In this document: positions 39,141 to 53,504 of the stretch, piece by piece
How positions within the stretch are numbered: the stretch's first letter is position 1
Layout: each line of letters starts with the position of its first letter
Source of the DNA: an uncultured Phycisphaerales bacterium
Lineage (GTDB): Bacteria; Planctomycetota; Phycisphaerae; Tepidisphaerales; Tepidisphaeraceae
Direction: 5' to 3'
NCBI GenBank assembly: GCA_963755915.1
Contig: CAVWLP010000003.1
Coordinates: 416,001 to 480,000, forward strand
DNA length: 64,000 nt
Notes under the pieces: generated by a model
What the model saw: only the letters and a program-made list of their open reading frames with translations
The model's database searches: none
What the model was told of the DNA's origin: nothing
Made by a program: the position numbers and the translations under genes

Positions 39141-42100
39141 GTGTCCATTCAAGTGGGCCGCGTCGGCCTCCGCGGCAAGTCTTCAAGCGGCAACTGGCGG
39201 GAGACGGCGAAGGTGTCCATTCAAGTGGGCCGCGTCGGCCTCCGCGGCGGCGATGCCGGGGGGCGGGTTTTTCATAAACGCCTCGTGTCCATTCAAGTGG
39301 GCCGCGTCGGCCTCCGCGGCGATGGAGCGTGGAACTGCCCTCAGGTCGCTATGCAGTGTCCATTCAAGTGGGCCGCGTCGGCCTCCGCGGCTTCCAATTG
39401 GAGGTGCGAAGTGATTTCCTTGTTCAAGTGTCCATTCAAGTGGGCCGCGTCGGCCTCCGCGGCGTTTCGGTTTATACGGACAATGGCGGCAATGCGATGT
39501 GTCCATTCAAGTGGGCCGCGTCGGCCTCCGCGGCCACCATGTTCGCGTTAGCAAAGGATGATGATGCAAGGTGTCCATTCAAGTGGGCCGCGTCGGCCTC
39601 CGCGGCGGCCAAGCGGGCCGGGATTCGTCCCGAAACGCTTCAGTGTCCATTCAAGTGGGCCGCGTCGGCCTCCGCGGCGTGGCGAAGGTGGAGAAGCAGC
39701 CGGCGTTCAAGGGAGTGTCCATTCAAGTGGGCCGCGTCGGCCTCCGCGGCGACCATTATAGAACGAGTTGGAAGCGGATGCGCCCGTGTCCATTCAAGTG
39801 GGCCGCGTCGGCCTCCGCGGCTTAATTGCATCGGGGTTATTCATGGACGCGAAGATGTGTCCATTCAAGTGGGCCGCGTCGGCCTCCGCGGCTCGCGTAT
39901 CCGGTCCGCGTATCGCTAGATTGGTCGCGTGTCCATTCAAGTGGGCCGCGTCGGCCTCCGCGGCAATCTAGATGGATCGGCTAACAGGGTTCGGACGTTG
40001 TGTCCATTCAAGTGGGCCGCGTCGGCCTCCGCGGCAGGGAATTGCAAAGCCAAGGGGTTAACCCAACCGACCGGTGTCCATTCAAGTGGGCCGCGTCGGC
40101 CTCCGCGGCGCCGGGGCCGTGACGGAAATTGCAAATGGGGATTATGTGTCCATTCAAGTGGGCCGCGTCGGCCTCCGCGGCGTTGTGGAGATGAGGACGC
40201 ATCTGGCCGGTGCAAGAGTGTCCATTCAAGTGGGCCGCGTCGGCCTCCGCGGCATCGCGACAGAGCGCGAGATCGAGGGCGGGGAATATGTGTCCATTCA
40301 AGTGGGCCGCGTCGGCCTCCGCGGCTCACTGATACGGCACAGTATGTTAACGGTGTTGTGTGTCCATTCAAGTGGGCCGCGTCGGCCTCCGCGGCCGATA
40401 ATGAAAACATTCACTTTCAAAACAAGGTGATGTGTCCATTCAAGTGGGCCGCGTCGGCCTCCGCGGCCCTGGGGCTGGCTTAAAAACCACATCAAGATCA
40501 GTTGTGTCCATTCAAGTGGGCCGCGTCGGCCTCCGCGGCAAACTACCGCTCCGGGGATTGAAGCGTTTCGCACCCGTGTCCATTCAAGTGGGCCGCGTCG
40601 GCCTCCGCGGCCGTAACGGCGGCTTATGGCCGCAACAATACCCCACGTGTCCATTCAAGTGGGCCGCGTCGGCCTCCGCGGCGTCGTAACAATGCCTCAG
40701 CATGGTCCTGAACATCGTGTCCATTCAAGTGGGCCGCGTCGGCCTCCGCGGCTCAAATATCTTATTTCGCTCTTTTTTTCTTAAGTCGTGTCCATTCAAG
40801 TGGGCCGCGTCGGCCTCCGCGGCAATCCGTCGAATGCGGCATCACCACGTTCGACAGCGTGTCCATTCAAGTGGGCCGCGTCGGCCTCCGCGGCCTGTAG
40901 GATTAAATTGCGTATCTATTCCGTCGAAGGTGTCCATTCAAGTGGGCCGCGTCGGCCTCCGCGGCTCCGACCGCTGCAGCGCTTCGGTGTGATAACGGAT
41001 AGTGTCCATTCAAGTGGGCCGCGTCGGCCTCCGCGGCGCCAATTAACCGCACTCACCAACGCCAGCCTGGTCAAGTGTCCATTCAAGTGGGCCGCGTCGG
41101 CCTCCGCGGCATAAAGAGTTTGGAAATTGAGTAACCAGCAGTATCTCGTGTCCATTCAAGTGGGCCGCGTCGGCCTCCGCGGCTCAAACGCCAAATCCTT
41201 AAACCAACGAGCTTCAAAACGTGTCCATTCAAGTGGGCCGCGTCGGCCTCCGCGGCGCTGTCGTGCCTGTTGTGTTGGTGGCTGATTGTGGGTGTCCATT
41301 CAAGTGGGCCGCGTCGGCCTCCGCGGCGGATCAGTCTGAGCGTCTTCTCGGTGTTCGTATGTTGTGTCCATTCAAGTGGGCCGCGTCGGCCTCCGCGGCA
41401 GATCGACGAAGCCATCCCGGCAGGAGGAGCAGCAGTGTCCATTCAAGTGGGCCGCGTCGGCCTCCGCGGCACAAACACACAGTATACGGCCACCACAACG
41501 ACCGCAGTGTCCATTCAAGTGGGCCGCGTCGGCCTCCGCGGCAGAAGACGGCTGATTACGATACACAGCCGGGCCCAGTGTCCATTCAAGTGGGCCGCGT
41601 CGGCCTCCGCGGCCAGGATGGCAAGGTTCGTAGTTCTTCTGATAAGTCTTGTGTCCATTCAAGTGGGCCGCGTCGGCCTCCGCGGCGCGTAAGGAATTTG
41701 GGATTATTCGTGTTGCAAGGTTGTGTCCATTCAAGTGGGCCGCGTCGGCCTCCGCGGCAGGTGGCTGGTGAGCCAAGTAAGTCAATGCCTTCAGTGTCCA
41801 TTCAAGTGGGCCGCGTCGGCCTCCGCGGCTTCAATATCTTTTTTATATGTTCTAATATTCATTAAGTGTCCATTCAAGTGGGCCGCGTCGGCCTCCGCGG
41901 CACTATCGTCCGATATCTCCCCCAAAAAGGAGAAGGTGTCCATTCAAGTGGGCCGCGTCGGCCTCCGCGGCTTCGTGCCGAAGGCGGGACATGGAAACAG
42001 CAAGTTGGTGTCCATTCAAGTGGGCCGCGTCGGCCTCCGCGGCGCCCATTAGTAGCCATATCTAAACTCCGATATTAAGTGTCCATTCAAGTGGGCCGCG

Positions 42101-42970
42101 TCGGCCTCCGCGGCGCAAGCTGGAAAGGTGAACCGTTTGCTCCAGTACCAGTGTCCATTCAAGTGGGCCGCGTCGGCCTCCGCGGCTGGGAAGTGTCGGA
42201 GAAGATGCCGTACAAAAAATAGTGTCCATTCAAGTGGGCCGCGTCGGCCTCCGCGGCCTCGGATGGCTCGGTCGTCTGCTGGAAATGGCAGTGGCGTGTC
42301 CATTCAAGTGGGCCGCGTCGGCCTCCGCGGCACCGCGTGAGGAGCAGCGGCTCGGAGACGCTCGTGTGTCCATTCAAGTGGGCCGCGTCGGCCTCCGCGG
42401 CCGGCAGATTGATAGCGAGCACGGATCGGTGGCACAGTGTCCATTCAAGTGGGCCGCGTCGGCCTCCGCGGCAAATGTGAACCGCAGGCGTCGCCACGAT
42501 GAAGCCAACGTGTCCATTCAAGTGGGCCGCGTCGGCCTCCGCGGCTGCTGCAAAGCATCGCCGTTTCAAACAGGGAATGCGTGTCCATTCAAGTGGGCCG
42601 CGTCGGCCTCCGCGGCACCGGGACGATTATCGCTGAGGCAAATGGAGGGGCAGTGTCCATTCAAGTGGGCCGCGTCGGCCTCCGCGGCCGTGGAAGCCGC
42701 ATGGGAACGTGCGAGCAACACAGTGTCCATTCAAGTGGGCCGCGTCGGCCTCCGCGGCTAGTGCGAAGTAATACATTCGTCACTCCTGTAAGTGTGTCCA
42801 TTCAAGTGGGCCGCGTCGGCCTCCGCGGCATACCTGGGTGCGTGCAACATCCAGCCGACGTTCCGTGTCCATTCAAGTGGGCCGCGTCGGCCTCCGCGGC
42901 CTCATCTCAGGCTCATATCTCATTACCTATTAGAGTGTCCATTCAAGTGGGCCGCGTCGGCCTCCGCGGC
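39141..42970 (-). CRISPR. CRISPR array, 54 repeats / 53 spacers (34-38 nt); crRNA-sense repeat GCCGCGGAGGCCGACGCGGCCCACTTGAATGGACAC
   Basis: 36-bp repeats counted by eye; orientation inferred from the leader/tracr side and the GGACAC 3' end. Confidence 0.98.
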
Positions 42971-43029: not shown

Positions 43030-43195
43030 GATTTTGACGCAATCGAACGGCCATTTCGGGGACTCCTGACATCCATAAAACCGCGAGAATCGGCTTGTTT
43101 TGGGGCATTGCGAGCGTGCCCTGGACCCCCATTCACCACTGTCGCACTCGCGGCCGAAAGTACGACAGTACCAACCGAGCTGCGAACTGGGGCAG

Positions 43196-43320
43196 GCCGC
43201 AGAAGCCAACTTGTCAAAGAACGATGGCCCAAAGGGCCAACGCGGACCTGTTGAATGCCGAGTGCCAAGCCCATTAAAGGGGAAGACACGTACTCGGAGG
43301 TGATACCGCCTATAGCGGCG
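43196..43320 (-). ncRNA. tracrRNA of the type V-B system
   Basis: anti-repeat at 43235-43257 (19/23 match), second anti-repeat at 43196-43210 (12/15, all mismatches G:U-compatible), and GTGTC at 43285-43289 complementary to the repeat 3' GACAC. Confidence 0.82.
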
Positions 43321-43328
43321 CAGTCACT

Positions 43329-46300
43329 TTACCACGGGGTTACTGACGCTTCAACGGGCGCATCTTCGCGAGATAAGTGCGCTCGGCGAAGCAATGAAAC
43401 AACCCGGCACCGGACATCATTCCAATATTCAGCAGTGCCTCGCCAAGGGGAATTTGTGTCAATCGGCGAAGCCGAAATATCCCGCCAGAGGTTCACGATC
43501 TCGCGTTCCTTTTTGCCGGCCTTGGACCGGCCCGACTTCTTGCCGGTTTTTGGATCAGGCGTTTCGAGATCGCTCGCCTTAACTGGTACGAGGAAGAGAT
43601 CCGATGGAACGATGAAGCTTCCCTTGGTCTTCTCGGCAAGTGGCGTGTAGGTCGCTGACTCGCATGGAATGAACCACCACTTGCCGGAAAAATCGGGGTC
43701 GAGCAGCGCCTTCATGCCGACATTCGCGGCGGCGTTGAGGTCGGCTTGCAACCCCTTCGCAGCAGGCGAGCACGGGTCGGCTGAGACGAAGAGTTCGCCG
43801 CCATTCATGGGGATGCGGATCGCGGGCGCAAGTTTACGTTCGGAATCCGATTTTGAGGACCACTGTTTCTCGATCGTCACAAAAAATCGATCGCGGGCAT
43901 CACCCTTGTCAGCTTTTTCTTGAGCGACCTTGGCTTGTCGCCGCCACCAGGGTTTGGTCATGAAATCAATGACCGGCACATCAGCGCAGCGGATACCCGG
44001 CGCACCTGTGCGTGAATCCTGGCGAGACGTGTATCCGGCCTGGACTTCGCGGAGATGGAGTCCATGAAGTTGACAGGCTTCCGAAAGATACTTTTTGACC
44101 TTCGATGAGGACCATGACATCAATTGCCTGTTCTCGCGGCGCGTTTGAAGTTCATCGGGACGATAGTTGGTGAGGTTCTCGATCACGACCGCATGACAAG
44201 GAGCGTATTTTGCGGTGGGTTCCTCCACCCGCACCCATTTCATAAGCGTCGATCCATCCGCATTCTTTCGTCGCGTCTTGACCTGCTTCCAATGCCCGCC
44301 AAGCCCTAGCGCCGAACCCGCAATCCGGCTCGCAAGTTGCTTAACGCGCTGCTCGCGCATCTGCTCCATCGCATCAAGGATGGATTGCGCAACGCCAGCG
44401 TTTGTTTCACCCTTCTCCGGTGCGCCGCGTGGCTTATCGGGCTTGGCGCGCATCGCGAACGCTTTGTGCAACTGATAGAGCGACTTCATTGTGGCAATGC
44501 GCGTGAGCGACAGGCCGCCGACGTTCTGCTTCCAGCCAACATCTTCCTTATCGACGCCGGGCAAACGCCGACCCATGATCCAGTCGGTGAGCCAGCGAAA
44601 CTGTGCATATAGACCGACAGCCTTTTCCTTCGTGTCATGATTCGCAGGACTTCCATCATCTGCCTGCCAGCGATTGAGCCAAGCTGCGTGGACGACGCTG
44701 CGATTGGCTGCGGCAAGTTGCTCTGCGACTGATTTGAGTTTCTCCAGCAGTACATCATCATCCTTGCGACGCTGCTGGCGGGTGGGTCCTTCGGCAGTCT
44801 CATCGCGAGGCTTAGGGTCTTCGACCCGCCATCCGTTTGTCACCGTGGCGACGTGTTGGTTCCACAGATCACGCGCGGGCTTGTCATTCCACTTAAACTC
44901 ACTTGCAAGCGCGTGCCAATCGAACAGCGCGTCGGTCATTAGCTTGATATGAGCGGTATCGCCAGGTGTGAAGGGTTTCTCACTGCCGCCGATGCCCGAA
45001 ATGGTCTTGGTTTCCAGATCGAGCGCGTAGGCAATTTTTGCCCGGCGGGTGTGGCGTTTCAGGCCGAGTGCGGTGATGCGCACTGCACGGCCCATCAGCT
45101 CGTCCACTTCCCTTCCCTTGTCGCGATCTTCATCAGCCACCAAGCCAAGATCCGCCGCAAGTTTGGCGACCATCGCGACTTCATTGACCTGGCCCTTTTG
45201 GGAAGCCGCCCGCGCCGCTTTGTCCTCGCCAGGCAGCTTGATAAGGAATTGCCGATCGAGCCGGGCCCACGGAGCGGGATGTGGTGTGCCGTCGGATAGT
45301 TCGTCCGCTCCAATCCGGCGATAAATCGTGGTGCGAACCTTTCCGTTTTCGTCTGTATAGCGCGTATGGAGATAAAGATTCTCCGAACCTGCACCACCAG
45401 CGGATACTATCCTTCCGGAGATTTCTTCTGATAAATCGGCTAATGAAAGCGTCTCCCACACAGCACACGCCGCGGCGAAGCGATGGCCGAGGTCCACTGA
45501 AAGAACTCGAAGGTTGGGCAGACGGGATAGGATAAGTTTAGCGTGGCCGGAACGGGCGTCATTCGTTTGATGCTTGAGCGCGTATTCACCGCCGCGAGAT
45601 GCAAACGGTTTGGCCGGAGCGTCTTCAGAAAATTTTGCGATGTAATCTATCCATGGCCCAGCCGGTTGTAGCTTGGCGGAGAAGGAGACGAGCCAACGGA
45701 TGTGGTCGCGCATCTTTTTCGCTTTTGCATCCCACCCATGGTCTTTGATGTGTTTGGCGATCTTATCAAGCTGTGAACGTGGTGCTTGCAGCCGGCCGTT
45801 CCAGTCGGCCTGATTGAAAACGCCCAGAATGCTCACCGGTGACTTTTCATTCGCGCCCACGGCTGCGCGACCCAGGCGGTCGGCGCGGGTCACGTTGATT
45901 GCGGCATCGCCCGTCGATCGGTTTTGTAGCCCCAGATCTTTCGTCAGGCGTTTGCACGACCAGCGCATTGGAATGCTGTTGTCCAACTTCCCCCCATCCC
46001 ACAGCCCCATCGAAAGGGCGTGACGAGAATCCAGCCATGTGACCTGTTCGCGGGCTTCCCGTAAATCAGCCTCCGCTCGCTTAAGCTTTAATTCGGCGTC
46101 GGCCTGTTTCTCAGGTGTTTTGGTTTTGGCGAGCCGTTCCTTCGTTTTCTCCAACTCTGTCGCCCGCCGCGCAATAGTGGCCTTTGCATCAGTCAGTTTC
46201 GACGCGGCATCATGCACGGCGAAATGGATTTCCCACCGCGAATTGCCGAAGTCGCAGAAGACCGGGTGCGACAACGGATCGGGATGACGATACGCCGGCA

Positions 46301-48027
46301 CCTTGAATCGCTTCTGTTTGGCGAGCGCGTCGGTGGCGGTCGCGTAGTCGATCAGCGGCTGGGGCATCGCTTCGCCGTTCATCCGCCAGACAGCAATGGC
46401 ATCATCGGCGGCCAGCGCCTCAAAAAGCTGGATGTCACCAAACTTGTCGATGTCCGGATCGGCCTGCACGTTGCGGGCGACGGCAATGCGATCCTCGACC
46501 GTTTTACAGCTCGAACCACTCCATTTGGCGACCACTTCTTTCCAACCACCCACGGCGCGTCGGCGAATTCGATAGGCATCAATTGCTCCGGTTGCAGTGG
46601 AGCGATCATCGCAAAACCTCGCCAGCCACACGTTGATCTCGGCGGGCACCTTTTCGATCTTCGCCGCATCGATTTTGAACTTCTGCCGTTCGGATTCAGC
46701 GCGTTTGATCCACGAATGTCCGATCGACACTCGCCGGGCGGCGTGGTCGAGCATGACGGCAAACTCGGAATGCCGCGCTGGTCCGCCTTGTTGGAGATAG
46801 GTAAACCCACACGCTGATTCGACTTTTTCGAGAATCTTGTCGGACCACGGCGCCGGCCCTTGCCGCCGGTATTGGACTTGCACTTCTCACAGTCTTCGGT
46901 GGCGACGGTCTTCAGTTTCGTGAGGTCGTCCCCGGAAATCAGATCGACTCTGGATTCCCAAGCCTTGATAATGTTCCGCGTCGCACTCTTGTAGCCTGGT
47001 CCGCTGATCAGGCTGAGAATGCCGACGGCATCACTTGACTCAGGAGAAAATGCGACGAGCGACTCTGCCAGCGAATGGAGTGCTTCCGACCCTAATGCAA
47101 ACGCGGTTGCGTTGGCCGCCCATGAAGCCATCGCGTCGTAGGCTTTTGCCATTTCTGAAAAATCTGCCCCCTTGCCTGTGCCGAATCGGCTGCTAAGCCA
47201 TTGGCCGGCCTTCTGCACGAGGTCTTTGGCTTTGTCATCTTCCGCCGGTGGGTCGTCTTCGGAGTTATCAGGTGGATTGATCGGCGCAAGATAAGATTCC
47301 CGGGCGCCAAAGAACGGTTCGAGCAAGTCCCACACCTCTTCGCGCGTCAGCGATGGCCCCACTTGTTCCTGGGCGGCAGCAAACATGGCACTTCGGTTGA
47401 TCCACACGGCATCGTCACGAATCGCTGCCGAAAGGGATGGTTCACAATCGGCGATCCAGCTTCCAAAATCGGCTCCGGTTACGCCGCGATCGGCAAGAAT
47501 CTTCCGAAGCGCCCCGATCACTTTTTCATCCCTCTCGGATTGCGTTTTTTCGCCGCTAGCCACGACGAACTTCTCGTGCGAATCGTGTTGCTTTGGCGAC
47601 GATTCCACGCTTAGCCACGACAGGGACAGCAAAATGCGGCGATCGCGGATGCGAGCGCTCCGCCGGCGTTCAATCTCCGCGATGGCATCCCGCTCGGTGG
47701 GATCGGTGTCCTCCCTTTTTTTTCCCTTGATTAAATCTTTCAACGTGTTCGCGGTGAGTTTTTTCCCTTCGACCGACTGGGAATCAAAGCACGGTTCATC
47801 GGCCAACGAATGATCCATCCCGCCGCGCAGAGTTAGCAGCCAATCGCCGAAAACTTTGGCTCCATTGTTAACGGCCTCATGCGTTGCCCAGACGGCTGCG
47901 CGCAACCGTGATCCGTTTTGTCAACGCCGCGAAGTCGAAGCGTGTACGCCCGCTGCGTTTGAAATAACGCTGGAATAGGGCGATCCACGGTGTTTGAGTT
48001 TAGCTGTTTGGCTGCGGACTGCGGCAT
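43329..48027 (-). CDS. cas12b: type V-B effector Cas12b, about 1565 aa (single-base frameshifts near 47903 and 46849)
   Basis: N-terminal QRAYTLRL..WATHEAVNNGAKVFGDWLLTLRG; RuvC-I VLSVDLGHR, RuvC-II VVIENL..Y...RRENRQLM.W, RuvC-III ADLNAAAN; cas4-cas1 fusion and tracrRNA nearby. Confidence 0.92.
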
Positions 48028-48291
48028 TTGTAGTCATCTCCCGTATTACTTGACCAACGCAATTATCAGGGCCAGAATTGCGAGATTCGGGTACTGTCTC
48101 CATTCGAGTTTTTCCGTACCTTGTATCAGCCCAGAAGAGCGGGGGGACCGCAGAACGGCGCGAGAGCTTCTAGAATCTCGCTTCCCTGGCGGCCGCCAGG
48201 CTCATCCTCCGCTCTTCTGGCCCGATAGTTTGGCCCTCATGCCAAAATCAGAAATAGTCGCCCAACTTATCGGTCGCGCGGGCTACGGCGA

Positions 48292-48342
48292 ATTTGAATC
48301 GCTTGGGCTATGTTTGTCAAATAGGGCAACCCGACATAAACT
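48292..48342. promoter_or_regulatory. overlapping divergent sigma70-type promoters
   Basis: plus strand TTGTCA(48314-19)-N17-TAAACT(48337-42); minus strand TTGACA(48320-15)-N17-TCAAAT facing cas12b. Confidence 0.7.
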
Positions 48343-48348
48343 TGATTG

Positions 48349-48470
48349 GCCGCTATAGGCGGTCACAATATCGCTGAACGTGTCGTCCCCTTCAATGGGA
48401 TATGCACAGCGGCGCGAGAGATTAAATCGCGTGACACATGTCGGGTTCGGCTGCCCAACTGCCGAACTAT
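48349..48470 (+). ncRNA. putative natural single-guide RNA (tracr-like scaffold, hairpin, GACAC, promoter-targeting guide)
   Basis: shares gccgctataggcggt and acgtgtc.tcccctt.aatggg with the tracrRNA; guide ATGTCGGGTT at 48438-48447. Confidence 0.75.
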
Positions 48471-48641
48471 TAGATGACAACCATCCCGCTTTCCGCGTCA
48501 GGCAGACTCTCGCCCAACATGTCACGGGGTGCGCCAAAACCAGCCAGGGCGGGGCGCTTCAAAACCGGCCAATGTGCTGACGTATTCTATACCGCATCCG
48601 TTCTATCCGACGCAACTGTTCCTTGAGTTATTGGTCCCCGT

Positions 48642-49532
48642 TCACGCCGTCTGGCCGGCGGATACCCCCACATCAGAAGACAACGGCGGCTCTGTCACGG
48701 TGTCTTCCGGGGGGGAGCACCCTTCATCGCCGGCGGTACTCCGCCGTCCTTTTGGATTTGTCTTTTCCGGTGTCCCGGATTGGCCTGCCGTGAGCGAAGT
48801 CGAATGGCCCCCATGCCGAAGGCGGTAGCTCTTGCCGGTGATGTTGATGATCGTGGCGTGCTGCAGGAACCGATCCAGAATGGCCGTGGCCGCCGGCACG
48901 TCGCCGATCAGCTTGGCCCAGTCCTCCAGTGGACGGTTGCTGGTCATCATCGTCGAGCGGTTCTCGTGCCGGCGCATGACGATCTCCAGCAGGCATTCGC
49001 CGCTGCGCCGCGGAAGCTGCTTCATTCCCATGTCGTCGATGATAAGCAGATCAGGCTTGAGATACCGGGCCAGCGTCTTGTCCTGGGCTCCCAGATCCTC
49101 GTCGCCTAAAAAGTCGCGGGCCAGGTCGAAGATGGATCGGTACAGGACCACCAAGCCGCTCTTGATCGCCTGGTGTCCGATGGCCTGGGCCAAAAACGAT
49201 TTGCCCACGCCGGGCGGACCCAGCAAGAGCACGTCACGTTTGTCACGAATGAACTGGCCGGCGGCCAGATCGTGAATCTGTTTGCGTTTGATGGAGGTGT
49301 TGAAGGAGAAGTCGAACTCGTCGAGGTTTTTGGTGTCGCGGAACATCGCCGCCTTGACGCGCCGGCCGATCTGCCGGCTGGATCGGACGTTCAGTTCATC
49401 CTGAAGGATCAGTTCCAAAAACTCACTGTGGTCGAGCCGATTGCCGGCCGCCTCGCTCAGGCGAACTTCAAGGCTGCTCGCCAGACCTGAAAGCCGAAGT
49501 TGCTTGAGCGTCTGCATCAACGAAGGTCTCAT
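48642..49532 (-). CDS. istB: IS21 helper ATPase
   Basis: differs from copy 1 by one residue. Confidence 0.95.
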   Translation of the reverse strand: MRPSLMQTLKQLRLSGLASSLEVRLSEAAGNRLDHSEFLELILQDELNVRSSRQIGRRVKAAMFRDTKNLDEFDFSFNTSIKRKQIHDLAAGQFIRDKRDVLLLGPPGVGKSFLAQAIGHQAIKSGLVVLYRSIFDLARDFLGDEDLGAQDKTLARYLKPDLLIIDDMGMKQLPRRSGECLLEIVMRRHENRSTMMTSNRPLEDWAKLIGDVPAATAILDRFLQHATIINITGKSYRLRHGGHSTSLTAGQSGTPEKTNPKGRRSTAGDEGCSPPEDTVTEPPLSSDVGVSAGQTA

Positions 49533-51330
49533 GGGGTGGACTCCCTTCGGCTCTGCTCAGGGCAGGCCTGTAAAGGTTGTGCGGCAGGCAAAGCCTCCGC
49601 TTGGGTGATTGCGTCGCGTACGAACTGTCCGTAATCGGCCAGTCCGCGGATGATTGGATGTTCCTGAACAAACTCGAAGTGTTGTTGAACCGGCGCGCCG
49701 TTTTGGTGTTCGATGAGCTGCCGCAGGGAGCGCAGGTGATACGCGCCATGCCCCAGAGCAATCTCGCAGGCTCGTTCCACGGCCGGTCGCGGCTGCTGAT
49801 TGGCCAGCGACAGCAGCCCCATCAACACGCGCACGCCTTCGATGCCGCGATGCTGAAGCATTGACTGCGCCACTGCGTGGCGTGCGGCCCGATGCATTCG
49901 ATCCGCTGGAGAAGCCAGGTCGTTCCACGCTCGATGCCGCTGATCTTCTCCGGCAGGATATGGGCGTCTTGCGTCGAGAACCTGCCCGGCGGACGCTGCG
50001 CGTGCAGAGCGATCGCACGCATCTTCTGATCGAACAGCCGGACCGTGTGCCCGTCCCACCGCGCCCAGACCCGCTGGCCCAAAAACTCCGGCGGGACCGA
50101 ATAGTACGCCCCCTTGATCTCCACGTGCCCGTCGCGGTGAACACTGCGCAACGCCTCGGTGAAAAGATCGAATCGCACCGGCGGCAGAGCCAACAGTGCC
50201 GGCTTCTCTACCTGCTCGAAGACTTCCTTCACCTGCCGCCGCGTCGTGCCGTGGATGCGCGTGTCGGCCACGCTCTTCTCCCACGTCAGCAGATGCGCGT
50301 TCTGATCCGAGAGCGAGGCGAATTGCCGGCCTTTGAGAGCATTGCTCTTCACATAGCCGATGCCCCGCTCGATCTTCCCCTTGTGCCGCGGCGTGTACGG
50401 CTTGGTGGGCAGAATGGCGATTCCATAATGTTCGGCGAACGACCGGACCTTGGGACACAACTCCGCCTCGAACCAGTCCGCCCGCGTCACCGCCGCGCGA
50501 AGATTGTCGATCACCAGCGCTGACGGCATCCCGCCGAAGTGCGTAAAGGCATTTTCCAGACAACGCAGAAAATCATCGGTCGTCTGCCGCTCCACCGCCT
50601 CGGCGTACCCCTTGCGGCTGTGGCTCAGCACAATGCGGAAGACCCAGGTTGCTTTGCGTTTGCCGTCAGGACCGACCAGGGCGCACCCCGGCCGAAGTCC
50701 ACCTGCGCCTCGGCTCCCGGCTCGCATTCCATCCGGCGAAAGGGCGCCGGCGCGGCAGCCGAGAGCTTCTTGATGAACCGGCGCACGCTGTAATAGCTGC
50801 CGGCATAGCCGTGATCGCTGGAGATGTCTTGATAAATCCGCTGGGCCGTCAGCCCGGCTTCCAACTTCTGAACAATGACCTCACGCCAGGGCGATGCCGT
50901 ACTGACCGACCCGATCGGCGCGCCGGATAACCCGGTGGGCGCGCTCTCCGAGCCGCCTGCGGCGAGCACCGTCGAGCCGCCTGCGGCGAGCACCGTCGAG
51001 CCGCCTGCGGCGAGCACCGTCGAGCCGCCTGCGGCGAGCACCGTCGAGCCGCCTGCGGCGAGCACCGTCGAGCCGCCTGCGGCGAGCACCGTCGAGCCGC
51101 CTGCGGCGAGCACCGTCGAGCCGCCTGCGGCGAGCACCGTCGAGCCGAGGGGCGCGCTGGCCGGTTTTGAATCCGATCCGGGCGCCGCAGGATCGCCGCC
51201 CGACAACCGGATGTGGCGTCCAACGGTCTCCCGGTGAACGCCGAGTTGGCGGGCGATGTTCCGATTGGACCAGCCGCTGCGCAAGTGCCAAAATTGCTTG
51301 TACTTCCGCCATCTTGAGTTGATTGGCCAT
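49529..51330 (-). CDS. istA: IS21 transposase (frameshifted)
   Basis: same motifs as copy 1. Confidence 0.9.
50950..51141. repeat. 24-bp tandem repeat x8 inside istA
   Basis: same unit as 34727-34846. Confidence 0.95.
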
Positions 51331-51698
51331 CCCACCATTGGCTTGCGGCAACCGCCGAAAGCCAAGGTCGATAACCCAATCTCCTGTGCCTCAAAATGGC
51401 CGGTTTTGGCGCACCCTCAATTGGCCGGTTTTGCGCCCCCATGACACCCAACACGGTTGCCGCCTCTCTTGCGGCCTCCTCGTTGCTGCCAAGGTCCACG
51501 ATAAGGAGCTGGTCTTCCTTGAGATTGAGCACTTCGCGCGCCGCGTTTTCCAGCCGCACACGGTCGATGGCCTTGAGTGTGCAGTAGAACACGGAATACT
51601 GCCACGGTTCGCCGTATGCCTTCATGACTTTGTGGATTCGACGAAGGCGCTTGTCATTGCGAACGTCATAACAGACCAGATAGCACCGGCGCATGGTT

Positions 51699-53504
51699 TT
51701 ACCTCGTGGTCAGAAAAGCCAGCGTCGGCACCTCGCCAAGAAGCCACGCGGCCACAAGACGGGCATGCAGCATGAGCATGCGGCGATAACTTAGCCGGTA
51801 CTCGAATGCCGGGTGCTTCACTTCCGTGTCCATTCGTCGGCCATAGGCAGCGAAGAATCCTTTTCGTCCTGCGTCGGTTAGAGCGCAGCCGGAGGCGGTA
51901 TTAAGAAAATGCCCCTCGGTCAGTTCCCCGCGGTTGAATGCCGAGACGGCGATCGAATCGGCGATGAGCGGTCGGAATGGTTCCATTAGGTCCAGGGCGA
52001 GTGCGGGACGGCCCGGTCGCGTGGCGTGCAGTGCTCCGAGTGTCGGCTCCAGGCTTGCCAACCGACACGCGACCACGCATTCATTGGCCAGCATCGAATA
52101 GGCAAAGGAAAGAACCGCGTTGACTGGATCGGGTGGTGGACGGCGTTGTCGGCCATTGCTGTCGAATCGAGCAGCGATCTCGGCGACGCCTTTCTTAAAC
52201 ATGCCAGCAAAATGGGCAAAGTAGATCGCGGCGGCATTGCCTTCATGCCCACGCAGTTCGTCCAATGTGGTTGATCGCTCGGCACCAGCAACGCAGGTTT
52301 GAAGATCAGGCCCGACCCGCGATGGCAGCGCCGAATGATTTCGCATCAGCAGCGTGCGTTGATTAGCGATCTTGGCGACCGTCACTGCACGAGCCAATTC
52401 AAGCGTTTTTTCGGGTCGATCCAGAATGCGGATTTGGGCACCGCGTACGGCGGCGCTGACTGGCCCCAACGGGTCCATCATTGCCACCAGCCGACCTGCG
52501 GCGGTCAGAAAAGCAACCGGCACTTCGTGATCGGCGAAAACGGTTAGTGCTTGGGTCGATATCTGAACAGCGCCCAAAACTGCCAGCGATTCCATGTTGG
52601 CAAGCGGTAGGTCTCGGACCAGTTCACCATCTTTGTCGATGACCCTCACGGACTGGCCACGAACGCCAACGCGGATGCCCTCGCGCATAAGCACAACATG
52701 GATACCGTCGTCGCGCGGCGGCCAGAGTTTTCGCGGTGTAAGTTGCTCATCAACGGACTGACCGTTGACGGTGAGCGCCGTGAGCCGCTGGTGATTGATC
52801 TCGTCCGGCAAACAGATCGGCTGGAGCGAACATCGCGGGCAACGCGGATCATTGACCAGTGGCGGCGGACGCGGTCCTTGTGCGTCCCGCTTAGCCGCTT
52901 CTAATTCAGCCAGTGCGTTGCGTTTCAATGCCTCATCAACCACCACGCGAAGTTTGAGTTTCTCTGCGGCATAATAGAGATACGCTTCGGTGACCGTGTA
53001 TCCGGCCTCTTCAAGCAGAATCGCTTGCAAGCCGATTTGTACCCGGTCAGTCGGCCAAGGTTCTGGCCCTGGTAGCAACCGAGGTTCCTCCATCATCTCA
53101 TCAGTCGGTTCAGCGATCTCACCGTAGCGCTTCGGTTTTCCCTTGCGATACTCAACTGGAATCGCCGTCGTGCCCTGGATTTCGGCCAAGTCGAGCGTCG
53201 CCGTCAGGCCGAGCCGATCACTCGTGAGCACGAGGCTGCGTACCGATTTAGGTCGCTCTGGATCAGCCTCGGCAGTGGCTTCTTCTAATTTCTCAATGGA
53301 CTTTTGCCCCTTTTTGCCATTCTTGCCGTTTGATTCCAATGCCGGCGGAGCCTCGCTCGGACGATCTACACGGCGGTGGGTGCCCGCGCCCTGTTCCGTG
53401 TCGGCGCTGGGCAGAAAGACTCCCTCGACTGTCATGTAATAGAACAGGCGCGGACAATAAGCGTGTTCCGCGACGCCGCGGGATGGCCAGTGAACGGATT
53501 CCAT
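51699..53504 (-). CDS. cas1: Cas4-Cas1 fusion
   Basis: Cas4 motifs YCPRLFY, PVEYRKG, CPRCSLQPIC; Cas1 motifs LRGHEGNAA, NAVLSFAY, ALDLMEPFRP. Confidence 0.95.
   Translation of the reverse strand: MESVHWPSRGVAEHAYCPRLFYYMTVEGVFLPSADTEQGAGTHRRVDRPSEAPPALESNGKNGKKGQKSIEKLEEATAEADPERPKSVRSLVLTSDRLGLTATLDLAEIQGTTAIPVEYRKGKPKRYGEIAEPTDEMMEEPRLLPGPEPWPTDRVQIGLQAILLEEAGYTVTEAYLYYAAEKLKLRVVVDEALKRNALAELEAAKRDAQGPRPPPLVNDPRCPRCSLQPICLPDEINHQRLTALTVNGQSVDEQLTPRKLWPPRDDGIHVVLMREGIRVGVRGQSVRVIDKDGELVRDLPLANMESLAVLGAVQISTQALTVFADHEVPVAFLTAAGRLVAMMDPLGPVSAAVRGAQIRILDRPEKTLELARAVTVAKIANQRTLLMRNHSALPSRVGPDLQTCVAGAERSTTLDELRGHEGNAAAIYFAHFAGMFKKGVAEIAARFDSNGRQRRPPPDPVNAVLSFAYSMLANECVVACRLASLEPTLGALHATRPGRPALALDLMEPFRPLIADSIAVSAFNRGELTEGHFLNTASGCALTDAGRKGFFAAYGRRMDTEVKHPAFEYRLSYRRMLMLHARLVAAWLLGEVPTLAFLTTR

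Follow-up and report, generated by a model that had tools for sequence, protein, structure and literature searches.

A putative natural single-guide RNA gene and possible autorepression of Cas12b in a type V-B CRISPR locus of an uncultured Phycisphaerales bacterium

RNA-guided self-repression of CRISPR effectors has already been established for Cas9, through tracr-L, and for Cascade and Cas12a, through CreA and CreR. In the published accounts, tracr-L of the type II-A system of S. pyogenes is a long isoform of the trans-activating CRISPR RNA (tracrRNA) that carries an 11-nucleotide (nt) match to the cas9 promoter (Workman et al., 2021), and types I-B, I-E and V-A have degenerate mini-CRISPR RNAs called CreA and CreR, the CreR of M. 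bovoculi having a TTTA-flanked target next to the -35 box of the cas12a promoter (10.1101/2023.03.10.532045). In the available text of a 2025 review, CreR is listed for type I and type V-A only (PMC12737573). The present study concerns a candidate counterpart for Cas12b, the type V-B effector, found in a stretch of 64,000 nt from an uncultured Phycisphaerales bacterium (assembly GCA_963755915.1, contig CAVWLP010000003.1, positions 416,001 to 480,000; hereafter the window). Between cas2 and cas12b, the plus strand from 48349 to about 48470 appears to be a separate gene for a natural single-guide RNA (sgRNA) of about 120 nt that would make Cas12b an autorepressor, a reading to which we give a probability of about 0.6. 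The features referred to below are collected in Table 1.

In form, the candidate is best compared with the engineered sgRNA of ChCas12b, which joins a 75-nt tracr part, a 16-nt repeat part and a guide. As far as the accessible text of its description goes (PMC12204704), this RNA has a stem 1 with a five-base loop, a seven-base linker, stem 2 and a three-base linker ending in AC; tracr bases -60 to -56, with U at -57, pair with repeat bases -5 to -1; a U-U-C linker and a three-pair stem 3 with a U-U-x-A-A-U loop are present, C(-40) of a linker pairs with G(-37), and a short repeat:anti-repeat stem stands right before the last five repeat bases. The same source gives a 5'-TTN protospacer-adjacent motif (PAM) for ChCas12b and at least 20 nt of complementarity for cleavage. 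BthCas12b and AacCas12b use ATTN or TTN PAMs and a 5-nt seed. Compact guide RNAs of about 90 nt are also known from phages, where such viral sgRNAs (vsgRNAs) act against Cas9 and, in the available part of the report, can silence the promoter of the nuclease itself (bioRxiv 10.64898/2026.06.01.729453).

The first 63 positions of the candidate (48349-48411, plus strand) match the scaffold of the canonical tracrRNA of the same locus (43319-43256, minus strand). The two have in common GCCGCTATAGGCGGT, identical at 15 of 15 positions, the core ACGTGTC.TCCCCTT.AATGGG and a GCAC, and all of the helices of type V-B tracrRNAs, namely stems 1, 2 and 3 and the pairing segment GUGUC, are present in the candidate. 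A covariance model (R1), built from four ordinary tracrRNA scaffolds (those of the window and of genomes G119, G011 and G305) with the candidate left out, matched it at 48346-48414 with 57.8 bits (E about 1e-11), and the tracrRNA and the candidate were its only two matches in the whole 6.6-Mb genome. When 61 scaffolds, drawn from genomes and metagenomes, were examined, the R1 structure was 98.9% paired, and double changes were seen in 9 of its 14 pairs, a number reached by none of 500 shuffles, with the caveat that the alignment had been fitted to the model, which favours a covariation result. The candidate obeys the pairs supported on these scaffolds. Its stem 2 has been kept through compensatory changes, CCGAG/CUCGG of the tracrRNA being replaced by CGCUG/CAGCG. 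No match to Rfam was obtained in the window at gathering thresholds.

Where the tracrRNA runs into its anti-repeat, the candidate has a self-closed hairpin; an anti-repeat of the tracrRNA type was not found in it, nor was any similarity to the repeat beyond GACAC, the five bases with which the CRISPR repeat on the cas strand closes (...GAATGGACAC). No linker separates the hairpin from stem 2 before it or from GACAC after it, just as the anti-repeat and the repeat are placed in the dual RNA. Downstream of the guide a further hairpin was predicted by folding, which is the probable 3' end or terminator of the RNA. As judged from its sequence, a tracr-crRNA (CRISPR RNA) fusion is a well supported architecture for this element. 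Such a fusion had been proposed in a first-pass annotation of the DNA, and it was recovered by the model that excluded the candidate, by the covariation rules of the 61 scaffolds and by the layout of the ChCas12b sgRNA. The individual elements and strings named in that annotation were likewise located where it had placed them, with two corrections: stem 1 of the tracrRNA starts at 43319 instead of 43320, and the stem of the closed hairpin has 6 base pairs (bp) instead of 5.

Wherever the accessible text on ChCas12b names bases, the tracrRNA of the window agrees with it base for base. On the same named bases, the candidate and the engineered sgRNA show one order of elements from stem 1 through to the guide, with 7-8 nt linking stem 1 to stem 2 and 3 nt, the last two being AC, linking stem 2 to GUGUC. 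The scaffold measures 89 nt in the candidate and 91 nt in the ChCas12b sgRNA, and from the start of stem 1 to GUGUC there are 31 nt in both. As in ChCas12b, GUGUC is available to the last repeat bases, at -58 to -54 in the candidate; its hairpin is formed by -26 to -21 with -11 to -6, followed by GACAC at -5 to -1. The -40:-37 pair is A:U in the candidate compared with C:G in ChCas12b. The candidate further differs in being natural and in having a guide of 10 nt, instead of 20-24 nt, that is followed by a hairpin. The candidate is quite likely to be an RNA that Cas12b can load.

The 10-nt guide, ATGTCGGGTT, equals the minus strand at 48337->48328, a site about 100 nt upstream with TTT at the PAM position, and the match between the two ends at exactly 10 nt on both sides. 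The guide 10-mer occurs nine times in the genome when both strands are counted, compared with 12.6 occurrences expected at equal base frequencies, and the only TTN-flanked copy in the 6.6 Mb is the one at 48337->48328. When the intergenic region was shuffled, a seed match of at least 10 nt from guide base 1 arose in 10 of 20,000 shuffles, before any PAM was required. Nine-nucleotide guide matches with a TTN PAM number four in the genome (three besides the promoter site), which is about the estimated chance number.

The target lies in a region with two predicted divergent promoters. For the sgRNA promoter, which was recognized by a consensus scan, the predicted start is G48349, 6 nt past the -10 box and the first base of stem 1; the canonical tracrRNA has a parallel layout, TTGAAG-17-TAAAGT-6-G43319, inside the end of cas12b. 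The promoter facing cas12b was read by eye and is not listed by the consensus scan, its -10 box having no A at position 2. The complement of the PAM (AAA, 48338-48340) and protospacer base 1 fall within the predicted -10 box of the sgRNA promoter, the -35 box of the divergent promoter begins 7 bp past the PAM-distal end of the target, and the guide pairs with the plus strand, that is, the template strand for transcription toward cas12b. The hexamers and the spacing of both predicted promoters are kept in two related loci, L067 from a metagenome and that of genome G568, while the spacer sequence of the divergent promoter differs. An RNA-library run (X20) yielded two 151-nt contigs, at a depth of about 2, over 48058-48208 and 48265-48415.

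Taken together, a simple feedback circuit may be proposed. The sgRNA would begin at stem 1 and keep all of the scaffold helices of the tracrRNA, with the closed 6-bp hairpin standing in for the repeat:anti-repeat duplex and GACAC pairing with the scaffold GUGUC, before the 10-nt guide and the 3' hairpin. Cas12b loaded with this RNA would pair at 48337->48328 next to the TTT PAM and, since 10 bp of pairing is too few for cleavage, would stay bound without cutting, as a roadblock. The bound protein would cover the -10 box of the sgRNA's own promoter and abut the divergent promoter that is predicted to drive the leader, a small open reading frame (ORF) and cas12b; any read-through from cas2 would meet the target on its template strand as well. 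The outcome would be negative feedback on sgRNA and Cas12b alike, which, by analogy with tracr-L and CreR, could be lifted by crRNAs competing for Cas12b or by an inhibitor of the protein.

In the parts of the tracr-L account that could be compared, both RNAs unite a tracr scaffold, a repeat-derived part and a short guide (11 nt in tracr-L, 10 nt in the candidate) in one molecule, and both are placed divergently upstream of the effector gene and are complementary to its promoter region, the promoters in the window being predicted ones. They differ in that the effector is Cas12b instead of Cas9, with a 5' TTN PAM; in that the candidate has a compact gene of its own, on the opposite strand from the tracrRNA and some 5 kb away from it across cas12b, and is not an isoform of the tracrRNA; and in that its target also overlaps the -10 box of the RNA's own promoter. 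With CreR, as far as it is described in the accessible sources, the candidate shares a guide of non-canonical type that is partly complementary to a site flanked by a PAM and lying beside the -35 box of a cas promoter, and the CreR of M. bovoculi likewise serves an effector of the Cas12 family with a T-rich PAM. However, CreR is crRNA-like, lies between degenerate repeats and works without a tracrRNA, whereas the candidate combines five repeat bases with a whole tracr scaffold, and no repeat-like sequence was found after the guide or elsewhere in 48028-48519. The vsgRNAs, in the portion of the report at hand, are viral, directed at Cas9 and used in counter-defence, unlike the candidate, which belongs to the host cas locus of two lineages. 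By analogy, then, the candidate would work like tracr-L or CreR yet belongs to neither, because it forms a separate compact gene, without flanking degenerate repeats, that would serve Cas12b.

The same sgRNA gene was found between cas2 and cas12b in L067 and G568, which are nearly identical to each other and were counted as one lineage. Between the window and L067, the scaffold is identical at 77 of 89 positions, and all 12 differences lie in loops or linkers or preserve pairing. The guide (10/10) and the stretch that holds the target, PAM and -10 box (48328-48342; 15/15) are unchanged; identity is 3/7 for the bases beyond the target, 3/6 for those before the RNA start, 14/21 for the 3' hairpin, in whose place L067 has a different 8-bp hairpin, 40/49 for the end of cas2 and 36/69 for the start of cas12b. 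Guide and target thus show no changes in 25 bases compared with 28 in 159 elsewhere in the well-conserved block, a contrast that lends modest support. In G568 the guide is also identical, and 48328-48342 is matched at 14 of 15 positions, the change falling at protospacer position 9. The first-pass annotation had made guide-promoter complementarity in homologous loci one of the tests of its proposal, and this was kept, at 10 of 10 positions in L067 and 9 of 10 in G568. It had also suggested a search of related cas12b loci for a second scaffold whose guide co-varies with the promoter: the second scaffold was found in these two loci, but the co-variation was not.

That the 12 scaffold differences between lineages break no helix bears on another explanation, in which a rearrangement has left part of the tracrRNA gene behind between cas2 and cas12b, as an inverted and now decaying duplicate that yields at most an inert RNA and whose 10-bp match is due to chance or is a junction artefact. 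The locus is indeed a recombination mosaic, the copy in the window has an IS21 insertion and a broken small ORF as neighbours, G568 has suffered the target change and a deletion in the 3' hairpin, and the transcript is so far only predicted. However, stem 2 and the -40:-37 pair have been kept by double changes relative to the tracrRNA, the register of hairpin, GACAC and guide is exact, the only PAM-flanked match of the genome sits in the RNA's own promoter, and the gene is kept beside an intact cas12b in G568. An inert relic is therefore quite unlikely.

The scaffold looks fully competent, and phage sgRNA-like RNAs for Cas9 are described, in the available text, as acting partly by sequestering the apoenzyme (bioRxiv 10.64898/2026.06.01.729453). 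It could thus be supposed that the RNA loads Cas12b mainly as a competitor of, or sink against, crRNAs, or guides it to some other target, the promoter match being incidental. This is highly improbable, given that the genome holds no other TTN-flanked 10-nt match and 9-nt ones only at about the chance number, that no part of the module is better conserved than the guide and the promoter site, which show 0 changes over their 25 bases, and that the gene is host-encoded at the same place in two lineages, with no viral copy found.

Several observations weigh against autorepression by a natural sgRNA. Guide and target do not co-vary in any lineage compared, both being invariant between lineages, and in G568 the target has changed at protospacer position 9 while the guide has not, leaving 8 contiguous pairs. 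The 3' hairpin of G568 is weakened by a 6-nt deletion, and stem 1 of its sgRNA is unlike that of its own tracrRNA, so that compatibility there would have to rest on the general covariation of stem 1 over the scaffolds. In the window, no U-tract follows the 3' hairpin, and guide bases 8-10 are sequestered in that hairpin. The X20 contigs give neither strand nor ends, with carry-over of DNA possible, and one of them spans the predicted RNA start. No array spacer has a self-match longer than 19 nt in the genome that could have shown the PAM of this particular Cas12b. The module is also rare: a single genome carries it among the 141 of the window's family, as do one of the 72 of G568's family and two of the 401 sampled from the class, and it accounts for one of the 115 metagenome matches. 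Finally, Cas4/Cas1 of the window's genome (G000) and of G568, which belong to different families, are 88% identical, compared with 46% for Cas12b (37% at its N-terminus). Judged by these values the sgRNA module shares the history of the adaptation genes, and because it travels with them, the loss of similarity at 48321-48327 may mark a point where recombination joined two sequences rather than reflect selection.

The divergent promoter opens on a long leader whose content differs between the lineages. In L067 and G568 an intact ORF of 59 amino acids, with a hydrophobic helix at its C-terminus, lies directly behind the cas12b-facing promoter (TTGACA-17-TCAAAT); its ATG is 9 nt past the -10 box, so its mRNA would be nearly leaderless, and its stop abuts or overlaps the cas12b start. 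A third homologue of the peptide (P0004) is 81% identical. Its predicted N-terminus, MTGCPIDK, when translated back over the target, implies an A in place of T at protospacer position 4, within the seed. Only two database proteins turned up for it, and no Pfam match was obtained at E up to 1. In the window, a stop interrupts the ORF, as do about 120 extra bases absent from L067 and G568, a sequence confirmed by a short-read contig, while the last 12 codons of the ORF differ from those of L067 only synonymously. The extra bases fold with -66.9 kcal/mol and are unique in the genome, not a repeated element there. They contain, at 48090-48240 on the minus strand, inverted arms of 22 nt (48124-48145 and 48206-48227), and they also occur in a contig of the RNA-library run, with five differences. 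A direct repeat of 17/20 identity (48150-48169 and 48404-48423; GCACAGCGGCGCGAGAGATT) ties this leader insertion to the sgRNA segment, which may be chance or a trace of the origin of the module.

This ORF invites the alternative that the sgRNA is mainly the antitoxin half of an addiction module resembling CreTA or CrePA, in which case Cas12b and the sgRNA would silence the promoter of a small, C-terminally anchored membrane peptide, loss or inhibition of Cas12b would free the toxic peptide, and regulation of cas12b would be secondary; it overlaps with autorepression. A small ORF directly behind a guide-occupied promoter, as in L067 and G568, recalls those systems, type I toxins are typically small hydrophobic peptides, and in CrePA a CreA guide RNA is the partner of a protein toxin, in so far as the accessible texts describe it (10.1101/2024.01.05.574328; PMC12737573). 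The position of the ORF as the first after the targeted promoter, its nearly leaderless start, its end just ahead of or overlapping the start of cas12b, and the conservation seen in the 81% homologue and in the 12 synonymously differing codons are all in keeping with such a role. On the other hand, the ORF is co-oriented and probably co-transcribed with cas12b, unlike creT and creP with their own promoters, its toxicity is only presumed, and the searches gave no Pfam match and just the two database proteins. The sgRNA and its target persist in the window without an intact small ORF, therefore control of cas12b is favoured as their main role, and an addiction module is regarded as unlikely.

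The distribution of the element was surveyed in genomes and metagenomes. In the window's family, the scaffold was found in 3 of 141 species-representative genomes, with two copies only in the window's genome, and in the sample of the class the core was found in 11 of 401 genomes, with two copies in two of them, G000 and G568. When metagenome contigs were scanned for the pattern of the scaffold core, 115 stretches were obtained and all were read; they were mostly ordinary tracrRNAs with an anti-repeat and, in a minority, chance matches without stem 1, and L067 was the sole homologue of the candidate. The module is seen in two independent lineages, with hints of two more. In G568 the order is cas4/1, cas2, the sgRNA gene (antisense), the 59-amino-acid ORF, an intact cas12b of 1484 amino acids and the tracrRNA. 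In G119, a relative of the same genus, 30 nt separate cas2 from cas12b and this gap is empty; the module is therefore taken to be an insertion into a compact operon. Contigs from runs X4 and X7 carry pieces of cas12b that are 85-99% alike and the end of cas2 (48472-48517), but unlike sequence before 48472; being contigs, they do not prove that the sgRNA is absent from those organisms.

Other possible carriers were set aside. G119, G011 and G305 have one scaffold each, and G390, G326 and G215 have no R1 scaffold match; a weak match upstream of cas12b in G390 (12.3 bits) is not a scaffold, and the repeat of G390 differs. Two R1 matches in the metagenome contig L065 belong to a duplicated tracrRNA with its own mini-array and not to an sgRNA. 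At 90-700 of this contig, in front of the main tracrRNA and array, the promoter, tracrRNA and leader are duplicated in tandem, together with a mini-array of three repeats and a CTGTCT microsatellite. GACAC occurs by chance in L070 and L143, a scan of contigs with the Cas12b protein gave a single weak and unrelated locus (L011), and a scan of viral contigs gave one chance match without stem 1 and no viral copy.

When the locus was compared with L163 (window positions 51699-53504 and 43329-48027), it appeared as a mosaic, with the shift in similarity adjoining the sgRNA target. This looks like a swap of the effector module or a horizontal transfer. A more speculative view, which we consider unlikely, is that the sgRNA gene, its own target, the promoter pair and the membrane peptide form a portable cassette that has moved with cas4/1-cas2 onto two Cas12b proteins of 46% identity, the peptide being a Cas12b-repressed toxin and the whole a type V-B CrePA; in this view, occasional nicking at the self-target might also promote an effector swap at that very site.

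The remainder of the locus is that of a type V-B system, the identity of the effector being given by its RuvC-like domain, its similarity to solved structures and the adjacent tracrRNA and array. The cas12b product matches Pfam C2c1_RuvC-like (PF22126, E 2.3e-24); the nearest solved protein is ChCas12b (9KLN, 1496 amino acids, E 3e-261), followed at a distance by AacCas12b and BthCas12b (E about 1e-21). The motifs SVDLG, IENL and ADLNAA were found in it, which we take to hold the RuvC catalytic residues. In the assembly the gene is spread over three frames, with apparent frameshifts near 47902 and 46848. Over 47874-48428 a short-read contig of run X1 differs from the window by a single base, a C added after 47902; in a relative from run X7, a single G is added after 46848. 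Each of these extra bases restores the frame. The frameshifts therefore most likely reflect errors in the assembly consensus; cas12b itself is probably intact, and the repair that the first-pass annotation had thought necessary is probably not required. Similar single-base indel errors probably occur elsewhere in the assembly, for which genome completeness is 81%.

The cas2 stop is 3 nt away from the 3' hairpin of the sgRNA, and the end of cas2 is severed from the rest of the gene by an IS21-family element inserted 16 codons ahead of the stop. The element has a short target duplication around GTTGGG and more than 30 near-identical copies across the 6.6-Mb genome, which vary by 1-3 nt in length, as fits indel errors of the assembly, and in the count of a 24-bp tandem repeat (50901-51188 in the window). 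The anti-repeat of the canonical tracrRNA and the reverse complement of the repeat agree at 19 of 23 positions. Between this tracrRNA and the first repeat, a motif CGCGAGTGCGA.GGTGGTG...GGGGG...GCTCG was observed at about 43100-43150 (minus strand). A motif of this form is kept at the same place in most tracr loci, including very different ones (L017, L018, L026 and many of L031-L162), and may be a leader or processing element.

Table 1. Features of the candidate sgRNA gene and its locus. Positions are those of the window unless a related locus is named; an arrow gives the reading direction on the minus strand.
Feature	Position	Strand	Details
Guide-RNA scaffold	48349-48437	plus	89 nt
Scaffold stem 1	48349-48363	plus	
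Scaffold stem 2	48372-48376 with 48407-48411	plus	
Scaffold GUGUC	48380-48384	plus	
Scaffold stem 3	48387-48399	plus	
Closed 6-bp hairpin	48412-48417 with 48427-48432	plus	GCGCGA, 9-nt loop, TCGCGT; in place of repeat:anti-repeat duplex
GACAC	48433-48437	plus	last five bases of the repeat
Guide ATGTCGGGTT	48438-48447	plus	10 nt
3' hairpin (folding)	48445-48451 with 48461-48467	plus	GTTCGGC with GCCGAAC; 7 bp, 9-nt loop
Target protospacer	48337->48328	minus	5' PAM TTT at 48340->48338
Predicted sgRNA promoter (consensus scan)	48314-48342	plus	-35 TTGTCA 48314-48319, 17-nt spacer, -10 TAAACT 48337-48342
Predicted divergent promoter facing cas12b	48292-48320	minus	-35 TTGACA 48320->48315, 17-nt spacer, -10 TCAAAT 48297->48292
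Long cas12b 5' leader with small-ORF remnant	48046-48250	minus	
Small-ORF C-terminal LAILALIIALVK and stop	48084->48046	minus	
Intact 59-amino-acid ORF, L067	104-283	minus	
Intact 59-amino-acid ORF, L163	4089-4268	plus	
Intergenic stretch between cas2 end and cas12b	48028-48519		490 nt
cas12b	43329-48027	minus	start ATG at 48027, GGGAG 9 nt upstream
cas2 end	48470-48519	minus	last 16 codons and stop; severed by IS21-family element
IS21-family element (istA/istB)	48520-51446		within cas2
cas2, main part	51447-51694	minus	gene starts at 51694
cas4/cas1 fusion	53504->51699	minus	Pfam Cas1 (3.4e-79) and Cas4
Canonical tracrRNA	43180-43319	minus	scaffold 43319-43256, then anti-repeat
CRISPR array	39141-42970	minus	54 identical 36-nt repeats, 53 spacers of 34-38 nt

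The first-pass annotation knew of no description of such an RNA for type V-B, and literature searches, which did not extend to subscription-only papers, found no self-repressing guide RNA of this type either, nor one for any other tracrRNA-dependent Cas12 enzyme; in the accessible part of a survey of repeat-like elements, V-B is mentioned only for its tracrRNA. If the proposed function is true, the principle of RNA-guided self-repression would extend to type V-B, a system with a tracrRNA-dependent Cas12, and the candidate would be nature's own compact tracr-crRNA fusion for a Cas12, present as a separate gene and of nearly the same size and layout as the sgRNA that engineers made for ChCas12b. 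The idea is directly testable in G568, where an intact cas12b, the sgRNA and its target lie on one 9-kb contig. Two practical hints may also be drawn: a 6-bp stem with a 9-nt loop seems sufficient in place of the repeat:anti-repeat duplex, and a 10-nt guide may confer a dCas-like repressor mode on a nuclease-active Cas12b. Should the portable cassette be real, it would tune Cas12b while also making the cell depend on this protein, and in either case the mosaic locus bears on how regulatory parts move between CRISPR modules.

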